From the NCBI GenBank assembly GCA_028522875.1, contig GCA_028522875.1_3659.1: a stretch of 64,000 nt of DNA; one strand, given 5' to 3'. Below, in pieces: positions 8,001 through 59,604 of the stretch (position 1 is its first letter; every line of letters starts with the position of its first letter). The position numbers and the translations under genes are program-made. Source of the DNA: a phage. The notes beneath the pieces were generated by a model. That model saw only the letters and a list, made by a program, of their open reading frames with translations, had not been told where the DNA came from and did not search any database.

Positions 8001-9481
8001 CTAACGCCACAGCCGAAAGAAATTACCCGCCTGGGCAGCAGATGGCTGGTACATTGATTGTACTCAGAAACTCTGCTAACGAGGGCACGGGCTGTATTCA
8101 GATCTACAAGATGTACCTTGGTGGAACATGGGAAAGGTATTATAATAACACTGGTAGTGGAATGGCTTGGAGTCCTTGGAAGAGAACAAGCTTCCCGGAA
8201 AGCACAACCGCCCCAGTTATGCCTGATCTTTGGTTACCTTTGACCTCCAACTTAAAACCTGCACTTGGCGAGGGTGAGATGGTATTCTCCAGACCATCTA
8301 CAGCAACATACTTTTCTAAACGTGGTGTGATGGTTACTGCCCAGAACGATCAGCCTAGGTTTGAAAGAGATGGTCTGCTTATCGAAGGGCAAAGGACAAA
8401 CCTGATGCTTAACAGTGAAGACCCGAGTAAATGGGGAGCCAGTCAACAGATTACTGTTGGTGGTACTGTAACAAACACTAACGGCACAAAAGGTGCAAGA
8501 TTTACAGTAAACACTGCATCCGGTGTGGAAACAACAGCGTTAAACCTTGCTACAGTTCCAGCCACCAGAGGTGCCGATGTAACAGGTGCTGAGAAATTCT
8601 GTACTGGGTCTATTATTGCAAGGGGAGGTAAAGCGAACCAGAGATTACGTGTAAGATTCGACATGTATGACGGATCCACCACAGTATTCCAAGGTGACGC
8701 TTATGTTAACCTGTCAACACTTGAAGTTAAAACAACAGGTGGTGCAGCTGGGGGAATTAAAGTAAAAGCTGAGAGATGGCAAACAGCTGGACCTGCTTGG
8801 GTAAGGATTGCCGCTACGTTTGAGGCAGTGGCCTCTGACAAGAATATCGGGTGCCAGTTCCAGATTTCTCCACCTGAAGGTGCTCAGCATGTTGTAGGAG
8901 ATTGGGTTGATGTTGCAATACCTCAATTTGAGCTAGGTTCTTGCGAGTCCTCGTTTATTCCCACAGGGTCTTCACCTGTAACTAGAGCGGCAGATCTTTG
9001 CAAATTTCCGATGACTGATAACTTAGCACCTAGACCGTTCACTATTGCCGCTACTGTGGATGCTAACTGGAGAGGTTGGGGAAAAGCTCCTAACGCAGCC
9101 CCTAGGGTTATAGACACAGAAGGACACCAGTCGGGCGCACCTTTTATCCTCGGGTTTGGTTCTGCAACAAATATTGCAGAGGATGGGTATCCATATTGTG
9201 ATATAGGAGGATCTAACCGTAGGGTGTATGAGATGTGTAAGGTACGTAAGTTAAGAATGGGGTTCAGAATAAAAGATGATGGTAAAACATGTTCTTTTGC
9301 TAATGGATTGATTAGCTCTGAAACGCAATCTTCTTGGGAGTTTCTTGCAGGAGGGGCTTTTATCAGGATAGGTGGTCAAACAGCATCTGGTGAAAGACAC
9401 CTGTTCGGGCACATTAAGGATATCAAGCTTTGGAACTCGTCTTTGACCGATACGCAACTTATGATGGAGAATATTGAATAA
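5036..9481 (+). CDS. large tail fibre / tailspike protein with conserved N-terminal anchor domain and C-terminal ConA/LamG-like lectin motif
   Basis: 1481 aa; RBS caggag; N-terminus paralogous to 1733-2401; C-terminus ...HLFGHIKDIKLWNSSLTDTQLMMENIE resembles LamG/ConA-like jelly-roll end motif. Confidence 0.55.
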   Translation: MADIKVVRIESLPATTAVTEDDYLVVQQPDLTRRVKIGDVVHVDGTVSHVISFKEGGKLNGPMDFAYFEEEDLYLRWKGEFPHTVPALSSPYSDGGITDAAWMVYTDPSLREELESTIGASMIMTAEGQSVQDVMDVTVKTANDAKALAQRVDFGTVHTVGDVIHLVNFVGPAVIEEGRTTNYPSVAAGEKFLNGVVSRRDTTTVDGIFRGATSGAMYTIAVTNGVATTKRIALRDEFKRLEANNPTRTVIRAGDDVNTAGYLQLDATGRWGMWNQQTSSWQPLAIEQGGTGARDAAGARINLGAFYKQRAALEANFNINNLTGNQDGVYYQPMTANATEANGYPAGSGAGHLIVWQNNANGGAGCRQEYYPFSNVDVWYLRTYQANTNQWTAWQPMVRPRNDDTFRSHIGLGKNNSPAFGHLYLAQYSGDVKSASGILHGDKYNTDGVLEHGYRIYSEVRNDNKAWLTIHLHKGAKGSETHRYLGFREDGVLDCPKYMQVGDLTGQLTNWGLGEWIRSSGAERGFWGSKKAAKMVIWDGGMDESGNGTLEWGVYNNRKAKWEPLPQAAGGTGATTLAEAQNLFRVPIAAGVKDFLTLPRTAGMEDGKYYPIIVRTDPYYAPTTGTDITIVTRSSSGGDPMNCATLQCHYRTGGWTDRGDSFYGVVNFYQNEKAILGMVAPTRGKQEYVAFYAEARAFPVSIYASRNVLEVFTKEQDYQVGSVTNNQDGVKFCAPLESADLNLAIKGDNVTNTRPLAEFKGTSGFYTGGGTQWHYIGTPERYAVMSKMTMPKVELWADGIDYLCPGSQTTRKALFSNAGFQAASEGTEDLINNTFTSKCGKGAGLKGQSEFRSTPEAGQVIVRDVVGSAHKFFNFNKDGTFYPPGGYVCQTGADWNNQFGNTNPSKIMAGNVNGPEGSMVVAGLSVGFSGNYAFQMAGRLDQLYTRSIEGGNHRAWNKVIQHRGQGLGNSNLNDYKADREGIYHQEANSNATAERNYPPGQQMAGTLIVLRNSANEGTGCIQIYKMYLGGTWERYYNNTGSGMAWSPWKRTSFPESTTAPVMPDLWLPLTSNLKPALGEGEMVFSRPSTATYFSKRGVMVTAQNDQPRFERDGLLIEGQRTNLMLNSEDPSKWGASQQITVGGTVTNTNGTKGARFTVNTASGVETTALNLATVPATRGADVTGAEKFCTGSIIARGGKANQRLRVRFDMYDGSTTVFQGDAYVNLSTLEVKTTGGAAGGIKVKAERWQTAGPAWVRIAATFEAVASDKNIGCQFQISPPEGAQHVVGDWVDVAIPQFELGSCESSFIPTGSSPVTRAADLCKFPMTDNLAPRPFTIAATVDANWRGWGKAPNAAPRVIDTEGHQSGAPFILGFGSATNIAEDGYPYCDIGGSNRRVYEMCKVRKLRMGFRIKDDGKTCSFANGLISSETQSSWEFLAGGAFIRIGGQTASGERHLFGHIKDIKLWNSSLTDTQLMMENIE

Positions 9482-33788: not shown

Positions 33789-34022
33789 TTAATCTTCGTA
33801 AATCAGGATTTCTGCTTTAGGTTTTCGTGCTTTCAGGTCCAGCTCTATCCAGTGCACCATAGCTGTTTCAAGAAAAACAGCTTGGATGCATCCGTCCTCA
33901 GCGTGCCCCACCAACATAACGAGATCTTCACCTTCGTCATCTGCATCACGAACATAAAGAATCTCTCCAGATTCAAAGTCTTTCACAACCTGATTGCTAG
34001 ATAATTTACGAATTTTTGCCAT
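33789..34022 (-). CDS. hypothetical protein
   Basis: 77 aa ORF in operon context. Confidence 0.4.
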   Translation of the reverse strand: MAKIRKLSSNQVVKDFESGEILYVRDADDEGEDLVMLVGHAEDGCIQAVFLETAMVHWIELDLKARKPKAEILIYED

Positions 34023-51164: not shown

Positions 51165-54100
51165 ATGAGCATGTGGTCTTTCGATTTTGAGTCATCCGGT
51201 TTGCTGGAAGACCCAGATCTTTATTATCACTGCGGCCTGTTTAAAGAGCTGAATAAGAACCGTTTTATGCTGTTCCTTCCTCTAAATGACCGCACACACT
51301 ACTCTGAAGAGGATATAGAGAAGGCTAAGAACTTTATTCTGGCAAAGAAAACTCTTTATAAAGATTTTGAAGTTCGCATAGCAGATTTTTCAGAGTTGGA
51401 AGGTTGGCTTACAGGAAATTCTGACTGGTCACCCACAGCTTTGAACTGCCACAACTGCTACAGCTACGACTTTATGCTGATGGAGAGATTGTCCGGTATT
51501 CATTTTGATATGTTCCGTGACCCTAAGTGTATGGGGACTATCAACGACCACCAGGTTAATCTGTTTGATACGTTGGCGATGAGCCGAATCTTGTGGCCTG
51601 ATCGCCCTTTACCAAAAGGTTGTCCGGACTCTGTATTCAACCCGGTTACTAAGAAAATGCAGCCTGTTGGTCCTCACGGCCTTATGGCATGGGGCTACGC
51701 CCTTGGTAACCAGAAAGTTCAAATTGATGACTGGCGCGATCTTCCGTTGTGGAAGTATGTGGATCGTGTATTCGAGGACGTTATCATCCAGGAGCTGCTC
51801 TGGAAAGAGCTGGTAGCGGAATCAAAAGGTGTATTCTACGGCAAATCTGACATGCAGAACTTTATGTACGATCCAGCCAAAGAGAAGCCGAAAGGGTTCA
51901 AGAAGATCACCTGGAAGAACGCACTACGTCGAGGCATGCTGCAGCACTTCCTGATGGAGCTGCAGGCCCGTCAGGGTGTATACTTCGACATAGATGGAGC
52001 TATTGCTTTACGTGACCGTTGCGATGCGTGGATGAAAGAAATCGCTGATCGTGTTGAACCACAACTACCTTTAAAAGAGCTGTCAATGTCTCAGCGGCCC
52101 AAGTTCCCTGAAAAGCCGTTTAACCAAGACGGGACAATCTCTAATAATGGTTGGAAATGGTTAAAAGATAAGCTTGGCTATCCTGTAGACATGAGCGCTT
52201 TAGATTTCAAAGCCCCGCCTAAGCGAGCATTTACCTCTACAGGAGATGTCAGCAAGATGGGGATAAAATGGTGTGAAGAGATGGGCTGCAAAGACCCCGA
52301 TAAGATGGCTGATTTCTTGAGAGGCTATATTAAGGGCACTTCCACACCTCACCCTTTGCCTAAAGAGCTGATGGATCAGGCAATAAGTGATCTACAGCAG
52401 AAGCGAATGCCGGACTGCAAGATACCTATGAAAATCAGCAATCAGGACGACATTAAGCGGTATCTGATCAGTGCTGGCTGGCTACCGACAATGTGGAGAA
52501 CTAAGGATGTAACTAAAGATAGCAAGAAGAAAGCTCTACCTGATGCGGATGTTGATGCACGAGTATATGCATATATGGACGAGCTTTTAGAGTCAGAGTA
52601 TTGTGACCTGATTATCAACTTCTGGAACAAAACTGATGCCAAGTTCCAGACAACTGTGCACAAGTTCCGAAGCTTTCCTAACTCTGAAAGGATTAAAAAG
52701 GAAGTATTCGGGAAAATACGTAGAAAAGCCAGAGCACTTATTACTTCTCCGCAACTGAAAGATACGTTTGGACACCTGTGTCCGAATCTTGAAAAATTGA
52801 ACGGAGAGATGGCTAAAGATATCGTCTTGTGGTTATCATTGCGAAACCGCAGATCAGTCCTTGATCCAATCAAGGAGGATAAGGTTGATACTGGTCTTCT
52901 TAATCACCCACGTTTGAAGATTGACCATAAGCTTCCTGCTAAAAGCTCTGGATTAACAAACACTTCCAGACAGAAACACAGTATTTGTGCAAACATGCCT
53001 AAACCATCCCCTAAAGTGGTTATGGGTAAAGAGATGCGCAGTCTGTGGGGTGTTCCTCCTGGATACTTTCAGATCGGTATTGACGGGTCCAACTTAGAGC
53101 AGCTTATCGGGGCTTGGGGTGCCTTTGAGTTCGACAACGGCCTGTATTACGATGTTGTAAGTAACGGCGATGCACATTGTTATTCAGGAGATACACAAAT
53201 TCTCACGGAGAAAGGGTGGGTGAGGTTTGAAGATCTTGATCCGGGAACACAAGTGTTCCAGTACGATCACAACACCTCGTCAATGAACCTTGTTACTCCA
53301 TTAAATTACGTTAAGCGTAGTTATTATGGAGATATGTATCATTTCCACAACAGTAGTGTGGATTTTATGGTTACAGATCAACACAGGATGCTGACTGTGG
53401 ATCACAGAAGCAATAAATTGTTTGAAGATTTGGCAAAAGACCTGAAAGCAGGTAAAGGGTCTAATTCAGGAAGAAGGTTTATCCATGCGGCAGAGTTTTA
53501 TGGGAATACAGCCTTATCTCCTGCCCAGGTTAATTTGCTTATTGCTATTCACGATGATGGGCACTTGCATACAAATAAGGACGGCAGCATCGTGTGCAGG
53601 ATTCAGGTCGGAAAGGGAAGAAAAGTTGCAACGCTTTTAGATACTTTTTCTGCTCTAAGCCTTAGTTATGTAGAGCAGAGCGGGAAAACCACAAAAGGAG
53701 GCTTACTGGCGAGAAGGTTCCAATTCCACGTTCCGTCTTGGGTATTTGAGTTTTTGGACAGCAATAAGGATTTCACCTACAACCTGATGAACCTTGATAA
53801 AGAATCTAAAAACCTGTTTATAGCTTCTTTATCTAACTGGGACGGGTGGGTATCTTCAGAAGGTGGAAAGGTTGCTTACTACTCCCAGGCCGAGTGTAGG
53901 AAGAAATCTGTAGAGGTGGTGTCTGCGCTGGCTACTCAGTGTGGTTTACGGAATAATACGGTGGCGATTCACAAAAAAGGTCGTGCCGTGCAGCACAGAA
54001 TCACAATTGGTAGCAAACAGAGAGCAGGGTTGCTGACACTATCTAAAGAGTCTGTCGAGGTGAGCGGTTCTTTGGTTTATTGCGTTACCGTCCCTTCTGG

Positions 54101-54557
54101 AGCAATCATTGTGAGAAGGAATGGTAAAGTGGCAGTGTGCGGTAACTGTAATAACGCCAAAGCTTACTCTTCTGTAGCAGGCAAGGAGATTTCCCGTAAC
54201 GATGGTAAGCCTATCACGTATGGGGTTATGTACGGGGCACAAAAAGATAAAGTTGCAGATATGCTGGACATCTCTCCAGAGTTGGGACAAAGGGTAATCG
54301 ATGCACTCTGGGATGCCAACCCTGGTCTCAAGGGGCGCAAAGAGGATCTGGAGAAATTCTGGGAAGCAACTGGTAAGAAGTTTATCTACTCTTTTGATGG
54401 TCATGCTATCTGGACCAGATCTAAACACTCTTTACTTAATGCATACCAACAGAATGGTGGTGCATCGCTGTGTGACTTAGTTGGGATACTTATGCACCAC
54501 CAAATGGTGAAGCGTGGGTGGTACGATGAAGGTGTTCGTCGTATTATTTATTACCAT
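51165..54557 (+). CDS. DNA polymerase, family A (T7-like), exon 1; contains an in-frame intein
   Basis: 3'-5' exo motif FDFESSG; motif A IGIDGSNLEQLIGAW; motif B KPITYGVMYG; ORF stops right after ...IIYYH-K at motif C position. Confidence 0.8.
53178..54146 (+). mobile_element. intein (Hint domain with degenerate LAGLIDADG-like endonuclease region) in DNA polymerase
   Basis: 323-codon insert between pol motifs A and B: starts CYSGDTQILTEKGWVRFEDL (block A), TxxH block B at VTDQHRMLT, ends ...RRNGKVAVCGN with +1 Cys; flanks align with T7 pol NGDIHTKNQIA. Confidence 0.6.
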
Positions 54558-54833
54558 AAATAACATTGTGGCTTCATAGAGTAATCTATGTCGAATAACC
54601 TCTTTAACTGCGGGAAGCCTAAACCTTATGGCAAGGTAATCCGCAACGAAGCGCTCAAAAGAGCGAACGCTCAGAGGCCATTCCGAAAGGAAGTAGACCA
54701 GCAAGTGCGGTCGAAATGGGAGGATTCCTGTGGTTGCTTATCATAGGAATATGAGATGGTCCGATCCTACGTGAAAACGTATGGCTATGCACGTAATGGT
54801 GCGGGGTAGCTTAACGACCTACCTGAACTATTG
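54558..54833 (+). ncRNA. group I self-splicing intron (no ORF) interrupting DNA polymerase motif C
   Basis: 5' exon ends in U (54557), intron ends in G (54833); P1 exon CCAU with intron GUGG (54567-54570); core elements P CUGCGGGAAG (54607-54616), Q AAUCCGCAAC (54637-54646), R GUAGACCAGC (54692-54701), S GAGAUGGUCCG (54752-54762); splicing restores YYH-DEYQ. Confidence 0.75.
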
Positions 54834-55187
54834 GATGAGTACCAACTTCAGGTCCCTGACACGCCTAAGTATAAGACTGTGTACACCTTCGACACAATTG
54901 AAGAATTGGAAGCATTTAAGGCAGAGCAGGAGGCCAAACTTCATGTGTTTGACGGTCATAAGTACAAAAAGGCACGCAAGGATGAAAACGGAAACGAAGT
55001 GGTTGACAGAGACGGAAACACGGTGTACGATCCTATCCTGAACGATGACGGAAAGCTTGAACTTATCTGGAGCCCTGTGGGTGAAATGGTGGTGCATTGC
55101 TTCTGGCAAGCTTCTAAAATGATGGGCGTTCCATTCCAGATCACAGGTGAATACTTGTGTGGTCGGAACTGGGGTGATTGTCACTAA
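54834..55187 (+). CDS. DNA polymerase, family A, exon 2 (C-terminal part)
   Basis: Begins GAT GAG (DE of motif C HDE) right after intron-terminal G; C-terminus ...GRNWGDCH parallels T7 DNA polymerase ...GPNWAICH. Confidence 0.75.
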   Translation, partial: DEYQLQVPDTPKYKTVYTFDTIEELEAFKAEQEAKLHVFDGHKYKKARKDENGNEVVDRDGNTVYDPILNDDGKLELIWSPVGEMVVHCFWQASKMMGVPFQITGEYLCGRNWGDCH

Positions 55188-55236: not shown

Positions 55237-55521
55237 ATGGTAGTAGAACCAACAAAAACATTTACATCTATGACTATCCCTGTTATTATGCAGGTGGAGT
55301 GTGTTCAGGTATCTCAAGTGTGGCCTGGCACCAAAATCCCAACAGGGCCTGATTTCTTTCAGGTTGGGAAAGTGTACAATGTCTGGAAGGCACCAGATTG
55401 TTACCCTTTCATTAAAGATGACCGTGGAATGTTGTGGTATCTTGGAAATGATTTGACACTGCACCTTGGGAATGCTATTATTGCAGTATTCAGACTTAAC
55501 AAGAAGGAGACCGATCAATGA
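55237..55521 (+). CDS. small protein, member of tandem paralog array
   Basis: ATG 55237 with RBS gagggg; shares F..G..Y.v ... KDD.G..W(Y/F)L ... a..f core with the next two genes. Confidence 0.45.
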   Translation: MVVEPTKTFTSMTIPVIMQVECVQVSQVWPGTKIPTGPDFFQVGKVYNVWKAPDCYPFIKDDRGMLWYLGNDLTLHLGNAIIAVFRLNKKETDQ

Positions 55522-55745
55522 CAACTTTGGTTAAAGCTACTTTTGTAGAAGAAAAGATGACAGACCTGTCCTTCTTTAAAGAAGGAAAGACCTACGAGGT
55601 TTATTACGATAAAGCTCGTGCAAACAAAATGATTAAAGACGAGGAAGGGGTTGCCTGGTATATCTCTCACCTGGCAAACGGTGAGTATCATATCTACGGA
55701 ACCACTTTGCTTGCCAAGTTTGTAGTTGTTGAAGAGGACCTATGA
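55518..55745 (+). CDS. small protein, member of tandem paralog array
   Basis: 75 aa; RBS aaggag; FFKEGKTYEVYY...IKDEEGVAWYISHL. Confidence 0.45.
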   Translation: MTTLVKATFVEEKMTDLSFFKEGKTYEVYYDKARANKMIKDEEGVAWYISHLANGEYHIYGTTLLAKFVVVEEDL

Positions 55746-55936
55746 AAGTAAAGTATCTTGCTGAAGGTATGAATAGGTATTTTACCCTTGGTGAAGAATA
55801 TTGGCCCTTTACAAACAACGGCGATGTCTACGTGAAAGATAATTTCGGCACGCCGTGGTTTCTGCACTCTAATGGGCTGGGATACTCTATTTACTGCGGT
55901 GCAGTGAACAACACAACTCTTGCAGAGTTCGTTTAG
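55742..55936 (+). CDS. small protein, member of tandem paralog array
   Basis: 64 aa; ATGA overlap; YFTLGEEYWPF...VKDNFGTPWFLHS. Confidence 0.45.
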   Translation: MKVKYLAEGMNRYFTLGEEYWPFTNNGDVYVKDNFGTPWFLHSNGLGYSIYCGAVNNTTLAEFV

Positions 55937-55946
55937 AGGAGGTAGG

Positions 55947-56318
55947 ATGCTAGTAAAAGGTACCCACACAGTCAAACAACGTATTGAAGTTGAGATTGAT
56001 GATTGTGAGCTGAAGCATATTTTACGGTCATGCTCCAACGTTTTGCTCCTTAGTATTCTTCAGGAGCGAGCGGAGAACGAGTTCTTAAATGCATTGGCAG
56101 GCCGTCCAGGTGACTTTTGTGTGCGTAAGCGTGGTGACAACAAGTCATGGTTGTGGGAAATCGATGCCGACTGGGATTACCACAAAAATGAGGGCATAGA
56201 TGAGCCTATTCGTGAACTGACGGACAAAGAGATTCAGATGTACAATGAAGTTTGTCATTGGGCAACACGCCAACAAATTTACCTAGACCCTGTGTGGCTG
56301 ATTGAAAATAGCCATTGA
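55947..56318 (+). CDS. hypothetical protein
   Basis: ATG 55947 preceded by gaggagg (track start 55920 less likely). Confidence 0.45.
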   Translation: MLVKGTHTVKQRIEVEIDDCELKHILRSCSNVLLLSILQERAENEFLNALAGRPGDFCVRKRGDNKSWLWEIDADWDYHKNEGIDEPIRELTDKEIQMYNEVCHWATRQQIYLDPVWLIENSH

Positions 56319-56394
56319 CAAGAAGTAAGATTAGATATAAGATGCTTCACACAAACAAAGCGTTGATTTTTAAATAACTAAGGAGACTGCCAAG

Positions 56395-56649
56395 ATGAAA
56401 ATTACTTTGAAGCCGGAATGCGTTGCAAATGACCGAGCTTTTAAAGATTGCACAGTCGGTGCAATCTATGAAGCAGAGTTTTGTGAGAACCCTCTGGTAA
56501 AAGCCCTTCTGGAAGAAGGGGCCCCTTTATCACAAGAAGAGATTGATGAGCTGGAAAACTCAGCACAGTGCCTTACCTTTAAAGATGATGAAGGAGACTC
56601 TGTCTGGTGCACTGTTAATGAAGTAGTTTTTGTAAAACCTGAACATTAA
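56395..56649 (+). CDS. small protein, paralog of 56713-56985
   Basis: 84 aa; RBS aaggag; shared K.KP(E/D)...(N/K)D.AF(K/R)DCT ... (F/I)KDD(E/Q)GD.V.CT pattern. Confidence 0.45.
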   Translation: MKITLKPECVANDRAFKDCTVGAIYEAEFCENPLVKALLEEGAPLSQEEIDELENSAQCLTFKDDEGDSVWCTVNEVVFVKPEH

Positions 56650-56652
56650 TAC

Positions 56653-56681
56653 TTGACAACAGTGATAGGGCCTAATATAAT
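56653..56681 (+). promoter_or_regulatory. consensus sigma70 promoter TTGACA-17-TATAAT, with -10 inside a 9-bp perfect inverted repeat
   Basis: -35 TTGACA 56653-56658, -10 TATAAT 56676-56681; GATAGGGCC (56664-56672) and GGCCCTATC (56682-56690) flank TAATATAAT. Confidence 0.55.
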
Positions 56682-56712
56682 GGCCCTATCAAAACGAAAG
56701 GGGACCACAGCA

Positions 56713-56985
56713 ATGACCAAACAATATCAACGAATTAAAGCCAAGGTTAAGCCAGACTATCTGGAGAAAGACTCTGCTTTTCGGGACTGCACAGCCGACA
56801 AAGTTTACACAGGGGCCGTCCTGTTGAACGATGAACTTGAAGTAGATATTCTGGGTAAAGAGGCCACTATTAAGGACGACCAAGGCGATTATGTTTGCTG
56901 CACCACACGTGAGCTAGAAATCTTAGAATACTTCGGTGAAATCTTCACCTCTCTTGATGATTACTTAGATGATGAGGAAGCGTGA
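56713..56985 (+). CDS. small protein, paralog of 56395-56649
   Basis: ATG 56713 with RBS aaagggga; track start 56653 rejected because it overlaps the consensus promoter. Confidence 0.45.
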   Translation: MTKQYQRIKAKVKPDYLEKDSAFRDCTADKVYTGAVLLNDELEVDILGKEATIKDDQGDYVCCTTRELEILEYFGEIFTSLDDYLDDEEA

Positions 56986-57374
56986 TGAAAAATATTTGGG
57001 ATATTGATATCTTTGAAGCCTCTAAGCTTGATGGTGCTGATGGAGTGATTATGGTATCTGATGGCAAGGCAACACTAACTTCCGGAGATATCATCTATGC
57101 CTTGGACGAGCTGGCGCTTCTGAAATCTACCGGTAACACTCTAGAGGAGCGTCTTCAAGGCTTCGCCTTCAAAGAAGGTACAAATACAGCCATGATGTGC
57201 ACCACACGGACAGTTCAGATGGGTAACGGTGTCTATATGATTATTGCTGTGTGTCCTAAATTCAGCAACGTCAACAAAGATGATGCTGACGCGGTAAACG
57301 ATGTGGTTGTTCTCTTCGTGGGTGACGCTATGGCAGATCTGATGAATGCGGGAGAAGCAGCAAATGAAGACTGA
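56982..57374 (+). CDS. hypothetical protein
   Basis: 130 aa; RBS gaggaag; ATGA overlap. Confidence 0.45.
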   Translation: MMKNIWDIDIFEASKLDGADGVIMVSDGKATLTSGDIIYALDELALLKSTGNTLEERLQGFAFKEGTNTAMMCTTRTVQMGNGVYMIIAVCPKFSNVNKDDADAVNDVVVLFVGDAMADLMNAGEAANED

Positions 57375-57666
57375 AAACATCACCCCAGCAGGGTTCTTAA
57401 AAGTATACCGTGAACTGCTGTATACTACAGAGGACAGTGTTCTAGAGTATCCAGAATATCTCTTGCTGTATAAGTATCTGCAGGAGGCTGGTGAAAATCT
57501 GCCAGTTAGTGCAGAAGGCGGTCCGAACTGGGTATACAGCGCATGGAGAAAGGTTGACATTCTCCCAGACCCAGGCAAAGATATGGTAGTTTGGCAGCTT
57601 ATCAACAACATCGGGATTCCAATCTTTGATGAAGCTGTTAAAATCTATTTTGAACTTGACGATTAA
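57364..57666 (+). CDS. hypothetical protein
   Basis: ATG 57364 preceded by gggag (track start 57346 less likely). Confidence 0.4.
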   Translation: MKTENITPAGFLKVYRELLYTTEDSVLEYPEYLLLYKYLQEAGENLPVSAEGGPNWVYSAWRKVDILPDPGKDMVVWQLINNIGIPIFDEAVKIYFELDD

Positions 57667-57683
57667 TATCAGGAGACCTTAAG

Positions 57684-57929
57684 ATGACTGAAGTAGTTGC
57701 TCGCGCAGGACAGAAAGTACGTTGTGTTGAAGTAGGTTTTGGTGGCAAAGGGTGTCAAAACTTGACTCAAGGTAAGGAATACGCTGTTATCTCTGGTGGT
57801 GGCGACGAAAGTATTGTGTTCGAGGGCCACATCCTGGATGCTGAAAACTTTGAAATCTTTGACGACGATGGGGATCCGATCACCTGCCTGCTGGACGGGA
57901 ATTGGGGAACTTTCGAAGTGATTGGCTAA
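57684..57929 (+). CDS. small protein, distant member of tandem paralog family
   Basis: 81 aa; RBS caggag; GKEYAV ... FDDDGDPITCLL resembles KDD.GD...CT core. Confidence 0.4.
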   Translation: MTEVVARAGQKVRCVEVGFGGKGCQNLTQGKEYAVISGGGDESIVFEGHILDAENFEIFDDDGDPITCLLDGNWGTFEVIG

Positions 57930-57939
57930 CAAATACCTA

Positions 57940-57968
57940 TTGTAATTTACAGAAGGGGATGCTAAAAT
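57940..57968 (+). promoter_or_regulatory. sigma70-like promoter TTGTAA-17-TAAAAT with extended -10 TG
   Basis: -35 TTGTAA 57940-57945; spacer ends ...TGC; -10 TAAAAT 57963-57968; upstream of 58013. Confidence 0.45.
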
Positions 57969-58012
57969 AGTGTCTCCTTCTATGTTGTTCAAATAAAATC
58001 GGAGATTCCATA

Positions 58013-58378
58013 ATGGAACAAATGAACGATCAAGCGTCGGTTGCGATGAACGAGCAAGAACAACCTCAAGAATTTTTCTTAGGGTTAAGTAAAGATCAAG
58101 TGTCTCTTTTGCTAGTGCTTTCTTCTTTCATGGGAAGACTTCAGGAGCTCACACAACAACCGGAGGCTGAACAATTATTTCAGGCCCTGCGCGAAGAAGA
58201 AAAATATCGTCGTTTGGACTATGCCTTAGGTTGGGTAGCTCAACAACGAGATATGTTGATGGCCCTCTCTGGGACCACAAGTTTTGCAATGGGCCTGTTG
58301 GCTCAAGTTCAGGACAAATTAATTCAAGCAGGGTTTGCACACACGGCAAACACTAACGAAGAACAAGGAGACAAATAA
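58013..58378 (+). CDS. hypothetical protein
   Basis: 121 aa; RBS ggag. Confidence 0.45.
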   Translation: MEQMNDQASVAMNEQEQPQEFFLGLSKDQVSLLLVLSSFMGRLQELTQQPEAEQLFQALREEEKYRRLDYALGWVAQQRDMLMALSGTTSFAMGLLAQVQDKLIQAGFAHTANTNEEQGDK

Positions 58379-59604
58379 TGAGCGTTATTCAACAATTCGC
58401 TAACCCGATGAATCCGCGTGAAACTGTTTTACTGGCTCACGGTATGATCAAGCGTGTTAGCATCAAACCTATTAAAGGGGCTGATCCTGCAACAGGTATT
58501 AAAACCACCGTGTGGCAAGGTAAGAAAATTGAATCCAGCCACACCATCTCTTTACTGATTTCTGAACTGGATTCCTCTGATAACCTGCTTCAAGGTGGCG
58601 AAGAAGTCTGGATCAGCATGGGTGATAAGCTGCTTAAACCGGGTCATCAAGACTCTGTCTCTGTTAAGATTGATGACAAGTGGGAAACCGTAACACCAGG
58701 ATGGATCGTAAATATCCCTTTGAAGGCAAACGAGCATAACGGTAAGACCTATTACAAAGGCTCACTGGCTAAGATGGTCAAGCTGGGTGCAGGAGAGGCT
58801 CCAGCAGCGACTCAGCAGCAAAAACAGCAACAAGGTGCACAATCACAAGGTCAGAAGCAGAAACCTCAGCAGAATGCCAATCAGGACGTTTTACGCATCT
58901 ATGGCGATGTGACTCAGATTGTTGGCAACGTGGTTACTGTTAATGACCACAAGATCGGCGAAGGTGCTATGGTTGTCACGGATGAGCAGCTTAAAGACCT
59001 GGTGGTAGGTGGTCGTGTTGCAGCCATTGTTGACAAAGCCACCGGAAACATTATCAGTGGTTTCAAAGCCTATCCACCTAAGGCAGAGAACGGCACCCAA
59101 GGTTCTGGTGGCAAGCGTAAATCCTCTTACGACCCTATCGGTGTGGAGACGGGGCATAGCATCAATGCGTTGCAGATCATCCTGGATCGCGGGTTTAAGG
59201 TAGACGACCCACTAGGCGTGGCTAAAACACTGCACGTAGTCACCATTGAGCTTAAGAAAGAGTATGCTCAAGCCACCAACCGAACTGAAGATGAAGTAGG
59301 TGCCAGTGTCGGTAATGCGGTGTTGAACGCTTGTCGCCGTATTAACAAGAAAACGAAAGTTGATGATTTTGCAGCGGCAATTACTGCAGAAGCAAAAGAT
59401 GTCTTGACTAATCTGGCTGAGCCGTTGTACGATTGGATCAAGAACGGTTCTGGGTCCACTGACCATCAAGAACCCCAAGCTGCCAAACAGGAAGCAGCTC
59501 CACAGCAAAACACTGTAGACGCTCCTCCTGTAAATGATGAGGAAGATGACCCAATGGATCAGAATCCAGCACAGTACTCCTTTGATGATGACATCCCTTT
59601 TTAA
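58378..59604 (+). CDS. SSB-like protein with Gln-rich linker and bacterial-SSB-type acidic C-terminal tip (DDDIPF)
   Basis: 408 aa; RBS aaggag; linker ATQQQKQQQGAQSQGQKQKPQQ; C-terminus ...DEEDDPMDQNPAQYSFDDDIPF ends like E. coli SSB (DDDIPF); in replication gene neighbourhood. Confidence 0.5.
   Translation: MSVIQQFANPMNPRETVLLAHGMIKRVSIKPIKGADPATGIKTTVWQGKKIESSHTISLLISELDSSDNLLQGGEEVWISMGDKLLKPGHQDSVSVKIDDKWETVTPGWIVNIPLKANEHNGKTYYKGSLAKMVKLGAGEAPAATQQQKQQQGAQSQGQKQKPQQNANQDVLRIYGDVTQIVGNVVTVNDHKIGEGAMVVTDEQLKDLVVGGRVAAIVDKATGNIISGFKAYPPKAENGTQGSGGKRKSSYDPIGVETGHSINALQIILDRGFKVDDPLGVAKTLHVVTIELKKEYAQATNRTEDEVGASVGNAVLNACRRINKKTKVDDFAAAITAEAKDVLTNLAEPLYDWIKNGSGSTDHQEPQAAKQEAAPQQNTVDAPPVNDEEDDPMDQNPAQYSFDDDIPF

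Follow-up and report, generated by a model that had tools for sequence, protein, structure and literature searches.

A conserved block of small genes beside the Vequintavirus DNA polymerase encodes a paralogous triplet with a predicted Gp54-like fold

Gp54 of Escherichia phage Bas11 (JohannLBurckhardt; PDB 9AXB and 9ERV) is a 66-amino-acid, non-essential protein, encoded in an accessory region, whose own function is not known (Zhang et al., Nature 2024, PMC11578894). It forms a six-stranded barrel with a prominent β1–β2 loop, a topology described as 'very rare in nature'. Through strand addition, it engages CapRelSJ46 at the pseudo-zinc-finger domain, and this activates the toxin; activation is not achieved even by close homologues of Gp54 (PMC11578894). 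Direct sensing by a bacterial immune protein has been shown for few phage proteins, Gp54 among them, and our literature search returned nothing on Gp54 other than the CapRel work. We verified that the crystallised protein corresponds to bas11_0054 of MZ501085.1. SH3-like small β-barrels (the RecD SH3 domain, 5LD2; FeoA; and eukaryotic SH3 domains) are also among the closest known systems. Here, we compare these proteins with a block of six small genes, A to F, in the window, which is the whole 64,000-nucleotide stretch of phage DNA analysed.

Six conserved genes downstream of the polymerase

The region of the window that holds the block is 98% identical to Escherichia phage LL12 over 3.9 kb and 95–97% identical to rV5 and ~110 other Vequintavirus genomes, which on nucleotide identity makes the source phage a Vequintavirus, that is, an rV5-like E. 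coli myovirus. Sixteen further records (MG0656xx), labelled 'Campylobacter phage' with Campylobacter jejuni as host, are 95–98% identical to the E. coli Vequintavirus region, which looks like mislabelling or contamination.

All six small ORFs delimited by the sequence-only reading are present just downstream of the DNA polymerase gene, on the plus strand. They are gene A (55237–55521; 94 amino acids; orthologous to rV5 gp219; phrog_12922), gene B (55518–55745; 75 amino acids; rV5 gp218; phrog_12623), gene C (55742–55936; 64 amino acids; rV5 gp217; phrog_12802), gene D (56395–56649; 84 amino acids; rV5 gp215; phrog_12544), gene E (56713–56985; 90 amino acids; rV5 gp214; phrog_11936) and gene F (57684–57929; 81 amino acids; rV5 gp211; phrog_4927). 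The dense packing and overlapping stops and starts ascribed to these genes hold for the A/B and B/C junctions, where ATGA overlaps suggest translational coupling of A, B and C. The block as a whole is not one contiguous array, however, as three unrelated genes are interspersed (55947–56318, 56982–57374 and 57346–57666; rV5 gp216, gp213 and gp212, respectively), and it is the GTG start of one of these neighbours that the gene E stop overlaps. The last of the three (rV5 gp212, plus strand) matches Pfam DUF7238 above the cut-off (E = 3.9e-7), the sole curated-family match in the block. No Pfam family scored above the cut-off for A–F, their PHROGs matches were exclusively to families of 'unknown function', and a literature search found no report on the function of their rV5 counterparts.

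A–F are genuine genes, and all six are under purifying selection. Gene calls made by independent annotators in related phages coincide with A–F, with the start of gene E differing among their records (261–321 nt), and each gene has a GGAG/GAGG ribosome-binding box 6–10 nt 5′ of its ATG (the Shine–Dalgarno sequence of gene A is GAGGGG). Pairwise dN/dS was 0.00–0.26 for all six genes in comparisons with relatives (dS up to 0.88). Protein A is near-invariant (dN/dS ~0.01 at dS ~0.6), and gene C has a dN/dS of ~0.1.

Consensus scanning located two sigma70-type promoter-like sites on the plus strand. The site 5′ of D (56315–56343; TTGACA-17-TAAGAT) coincides with the annotated rV5 promoter P220, and the site directly 5′ of E (56653–56681; TTGACA-17-TATAAT) lies in the 63-nt D–E gap and matches the consensus at 12 of 12 positions. 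Both are predicted promoters, identified purely as consensus matches, as is a candidate terminator-like hairpin 3′ of F (57951–57981, plus strand).

Paralogy and fold within the block

Genes A, B and C form a true paralogous triplet, homologous end to end. A and B match one another by phmmer (E ~1e-4 against 1,238 ORFs taken from related loci and from the window itself) and BLASTP (2.7e-5). B and C match by phmmer at E = 5e-4 with the FV3/ECP32 orthologues and at 0.2 with the window's own C (1,238 ORFs), and P0086, a metagenomic protein of 60 amino acids, connects the two by matching both B (1e-8) and C (7e-7). When the triplet is aligned with its orthologues, collinearity extends from the first strand through to the C-terminus, and seven residues are invariant (F20, Y26, D41, G44, W47, A66 and F68); protein A has a 30-residue N-terminal extension. 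No DNA-level repeats were found to connect the paralogues, indicating that the duplications are old.

Genes D and E are likewise a true paralogous pair (BLASTP E = 1.3e-10; phmmer 5e-8 to 2e-7 against the 1,238 ORFs). Their alignment contains 15 invariant columns, two cysteines among them, and tblastn with D as the query recovered E in 116 of 117 phage records (2.3-Gb database). Protein D contains a 16-residue insertion that is predicted to be helical, and protein E ends in an acidic, amphipathic C-terminal tail (FGEIFTSLDDYLDDEEA). A PDB sequence match between D/E and the kinesin KIF7 was not significant (E = 0.03) and was discarded. Formal alignment of A/B/C and of D/E thus bears out the two sub-families that had been proposed from the letters of the DNA.

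The position of F is more distant. BLASTP and phmmer found no pairwise similarity between F and A–E. An iterated profile was composed of A/B/C, remote homologues from the exhaustive search described below and small Drexlerviridae proteins, with all other window ORFs held out. Against this profile, F scored E = 6e-5 to 1.4e-4 (best shuffled-database match, 0.12), and hhalign aligned it to the A/B/C superfamily with a probability of 76% (P = 2.7e-6). On these profile scores, F plausibly belongs, as a distant relative, to the A/B/C domain superfamily. Outside the genus, F is closest to bas09_0072, from a Drexlerviridae phage, and a scan of IMG/VR with F returned near-identical relatives only. Pfam DUF7244 (PF23896) was weakly matched by F (E = 0.038) and by the repeat protein P0085 (E = 2e-4), all below the gathering score, whereas A–E had no match to it.

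The proposal that at least five and possibly six of the genes are paralogous stands for A/B/C and for D/E by phmmer and BLASTP and extends to F through the enlarged profile alone, but the link from D/E to the rest did not reach significance. A/B/C against D/E gave an hhalign probability of 1.9%; D/E against the enlarged superfamily profile gave 7.8% (P = 0.0012), with HMM E values of 0.3–1.5. As to the KDDxG core said to be common to the genes, the pattern [KEI]D[DEN]xG[DVMT], which was picked after seeing the data, occurs in 5 of 500 six-frame ORFs of the window, exactly A–E (shuffle mean, 0.85). The motif is therefore enriched, but KDDxG-type matches also occur in designed β-propellers and other repeat proteins; the motif is a generic β-hairpin turn, and A/B/C and D/E show no significant homology beyond it. 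A 77-amino-acid ORF elsewhere in the window (33789–34022, minus strand) has a similar-looking hairpin motif (SGEILYVRDADDEGEDLVMLV) and was detected by no profile.

These scores bear on an alternative to which we give a little under an even chance: that no six-member family exists, and that A/B/C, D/E and F are unrelated groups whose xDDxG hairpin turns became alike by convergence. The low cross-group hhalign probability, the scores of D and E against the superfamily profile and the presence of the hairpin in designed propellers and other repeat proteins are all in keeping with it. The model of D, which is too poor for a fold comparison, also leans this way in resembling a plain five-stranded SH3 domain and not Gp54. 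Against convergence are the significance of F with the enlarged profile, the two D/E motifs falling in register with the superfamily by hhalign at the above P value, and the confinement of the motif, within the window, to these neighbouring genes. In our reading, D/E are a separate duplicated pair whose fold is perhaps SH3-like.

The structural comparison with Gp54 is anchored in protein B. AlphaFold2, given a 17-sequence A/B/C alignment, predicted an all-β barrel whose first strand is followed by a long loop (pLDDT 89.8, pTM 0.78). The predicted structure has what characterizes Gp54, namely a single ~65-residue domain, six strands in the barrel and a prominent β1–β2 loop, and B is the only confidently modelled member of the block. 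Judging by the alignment, A and C would share this fold, and F probably does so by its profile match. HMM and other sequence methods detected no sequence-level homology between Gp54 and A/B/C, and the structural alignment has 16% identity; the match in fold may reflect either very remote homology or convergence.

A domain used singly and in tandem

The block is a feature of one genus. A word-indexed search of 5.8 billion proteins with B, the A/B/C alignment and the D/E alignment found no relatives of A–E outside Vequintavirus, and tblastn with B and D as queries gave no convincing match beyond the genus in 50,697 phage records; a match in CR9 adjoins the DNA ligase gene, not the polymerase. 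Variation in copy number among related phages, raised as something to look for, was not seen: the same set is present in ~115 Vequintavirus genomes, at constant copy number and in conserved synteny. A divergent lineage also carries the block, at 43–74% identity. In the other Vequintavirinae genera examined, A–E are absent 3′ of the polymerase; Seunavirus, Certrevirus and related Vibrio phages have other small genes after the polymerase, with no profile match there.

Exhaustive HMMER searching with the A/B/C profile against 1.8 billion representatives uncovered few true relatives, comprising single-domain proteins and polypeptides with 3–5 tandem copies of the domain (P0080, P0081, P0085 and P0087). 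The tandem-repeat genes are located in accessory regions of phages and mobile elements. On one metagenomic contig (L016, 2550–4668), two such genes stand side by side; on another (L015), the repeat gene (8001–9167) lies near genes for the anti-restriction proteins ArdA and ArdC, and the contig also encodes an actin-like partition protein along with a resolvase. The superfamily has the signature [FW][FT]xGKxYxV ... [IV]xDDxG, and none of 27 superfamily segments searched matched a Pfam family above the cut-off. Matches to giant ankyrin, fn3, β-helix and propeller-like proteins were rejected as summed weak hairpin matches.

Foldseek searches of predicted viral structures found the same fold in many uncharacterized proteins of 60–150 amino acids; these come from enterobacterial phages, Drexlerviridae included, and a single genome often encodes several. 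One match is a 78-amino-acid protein of Vequintavirus isim that is encoded outside the A–F block. The analysis also links the fold to a domain that can be defined by sequence and that is found as multi-repeat proteins in other phages and mobile elements.

Possible roles and comparison with Gp54

Five of the six proteins have a pI of 4.1–5.0 (A, 6.5), and D, E and F have a net charge of −10 to −12. From the fold, this acidity and the host-type promoters, we infer that A–F are early, protein-binding accessory proteins and not nucleic-acid binders. On the reading that we favour, with slightly better than even confidence, the locus is a Vequintavirus-specific, conserved block of small acidic single-domain β-barrel proteins born of old tandem duplications. 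The coupled triplet A/B/C would fold as Gp54-type barrels with a long β1–β2 loop, with F as a remote relative, and D and E would form a separate pair, each behind its own sigma70-type promoter. Host RNA polymerase would make A–F early, as accessory proteins, and each would bind a protein partner, be it a host factor, a defence protein or a component of the replisome. Binding would probably proceed by β-strand addition, by analogy with Gp54 and CapRelSJ46. The domain itself is a scaffold of phages and mobile elements, found as single small proteins, as several per genome or as 3–5 repeats in one polypeptide.

Nucleic acid is a frequent ligand of small SH3-, Sm- and OB-like barrels, and very acidic barrels can mimic DNA. 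The genes had been guessed to encode small nucleic-acid-binding or regulatory proteins from their location next to replication genes. The first part of that guess is disfavoured by the acidity of five of the six proteins and by the one confident fold, that of B, which matches the protein-binding barrel Gp54; the proteins could still have a regulatory or accessory role. We searched Pfam and PDB sequences for the nucleic-acid-binding small barrels (OB, Sm, KOW and cold-shock) and found no family or sequence match for A–F, and superfamily matches to phi29 p56 were not significant (E ~0.2). That A–F are small nucleic-acid binders, or DNA mimics that block DNA-binding host enzymes, is accordingly quite improbable, direct binding being unlikely for acidic proteins.

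The genes flanking the block have features of their own. The upstream polymerase gene (51165–55187) is interrupted twice relative to the intact 925-amino-acid gene of phage ECP32: by an in-frame 324-amino-acid intein at ~53178–54149 (CYSGDTQIL...VAVCGN|C), and by an ORF-less group I intron at 54548–54783 (Rfam RF00028, 64.7 bits, E = 2.6e-15), with exon 2 at 54831–55187. In relatives such as FV3, isim and FFH2, the same polymerase gap holds an HNH homing endonuclease. Downstream, the plus-strand gene at 58378–59604 (rV5 gp209; 408 amino acids; no Pfam match) encodes a protein with the C-terminus ...SFDDDIPF. E. coli SSB carries this motif at its C-terminal tip, where it recruits host replication and repair proteins.

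This setting gives some ground for supposing that A–F serve the phage replisome as accessory subunits or regulators and bind the polymerase, the primase–helicase or the SSB-like protein encoded nearby, a role that would account for their fixed position between the polymerase and SSB-like genes. Synteny with the polymerase upstream and the FDDDIPF-ending gene downstream is kept in ~115 genomes, selection on A is very strong, and the tail of E is of the type used in docking to partners. We nevertheless think a replisome role unlikely: other Vequintavirinae genera with orthologous polymerases lack A–E after the polymerase, with no homologue detected; superfamily members of other phages are not adjacent to polymerases; and the fold relative Gp54 is non-essential and accessory (PMC11578894).

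Counter-defence is a further candidate, one that we also regard as doubtful. The Gp54-like barrel might be a widespread, fast-diverging 'binder' scaffold of phages, present as tandem gene arrays, as scattered Drexlerviridae paralogues or as 3–5 repeats, with each copy adapted to a host target of its own, such as a defence system to be inhibited; such proteins would be recurrent triggers of CapRel-type sensors, and A/B/C would be a small counter-defence battery.

Set against the favoured reading of A–F as protein-binding accessory barrels is the strong purifying selection on the block, above all on A, which is unlike an arms race and is accounted for at least as well by a conserved partner, for example in replication. 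The comparison with Gp54 itself is informative in structure more than in role. The fold says little on function, as the native function of Gp54 is not known, and activation of CapRelSJ46 should not be assumed for A–F, since it is specific even among close Gp54 homologues. The rV5 genes gp217–219 and gp211 are conserved genes in which to seek that native function, and the present analysis reveals no new mechanism.

Gp54 comes from a Drexlerviridae siphovirus and A/B/C from a Vequintavirinae myovirus, and no tandem gp54 paralogues were detected beside gp54 in Bas11, unlike the A/B/C triplet. Similar in habit are small proteins from enterobacterial phages, Drexlerviridae among them, that resemble A/B/C by the A/B/C-based profile or by fold (TM 0.7–0.8), for example bas09_0072, bas09_0074, bas11_0048 and BFVD entries of phages NBD2, tuinn, tonn, SB28 and CR9. 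These too are small, and a genome has several of them, in accessory regions, but they have 14–25% identity, are arrayed differently from A–F and include none of known function. The Gp54-type fold would be present in triplicate, and probably in quadruplicate, in a large, well-sampled group of coliphages that are therapeutic candidates, and the cluster is a new multi-copy addition to the structurally known, functionally uncharacterized Gp54-like class.
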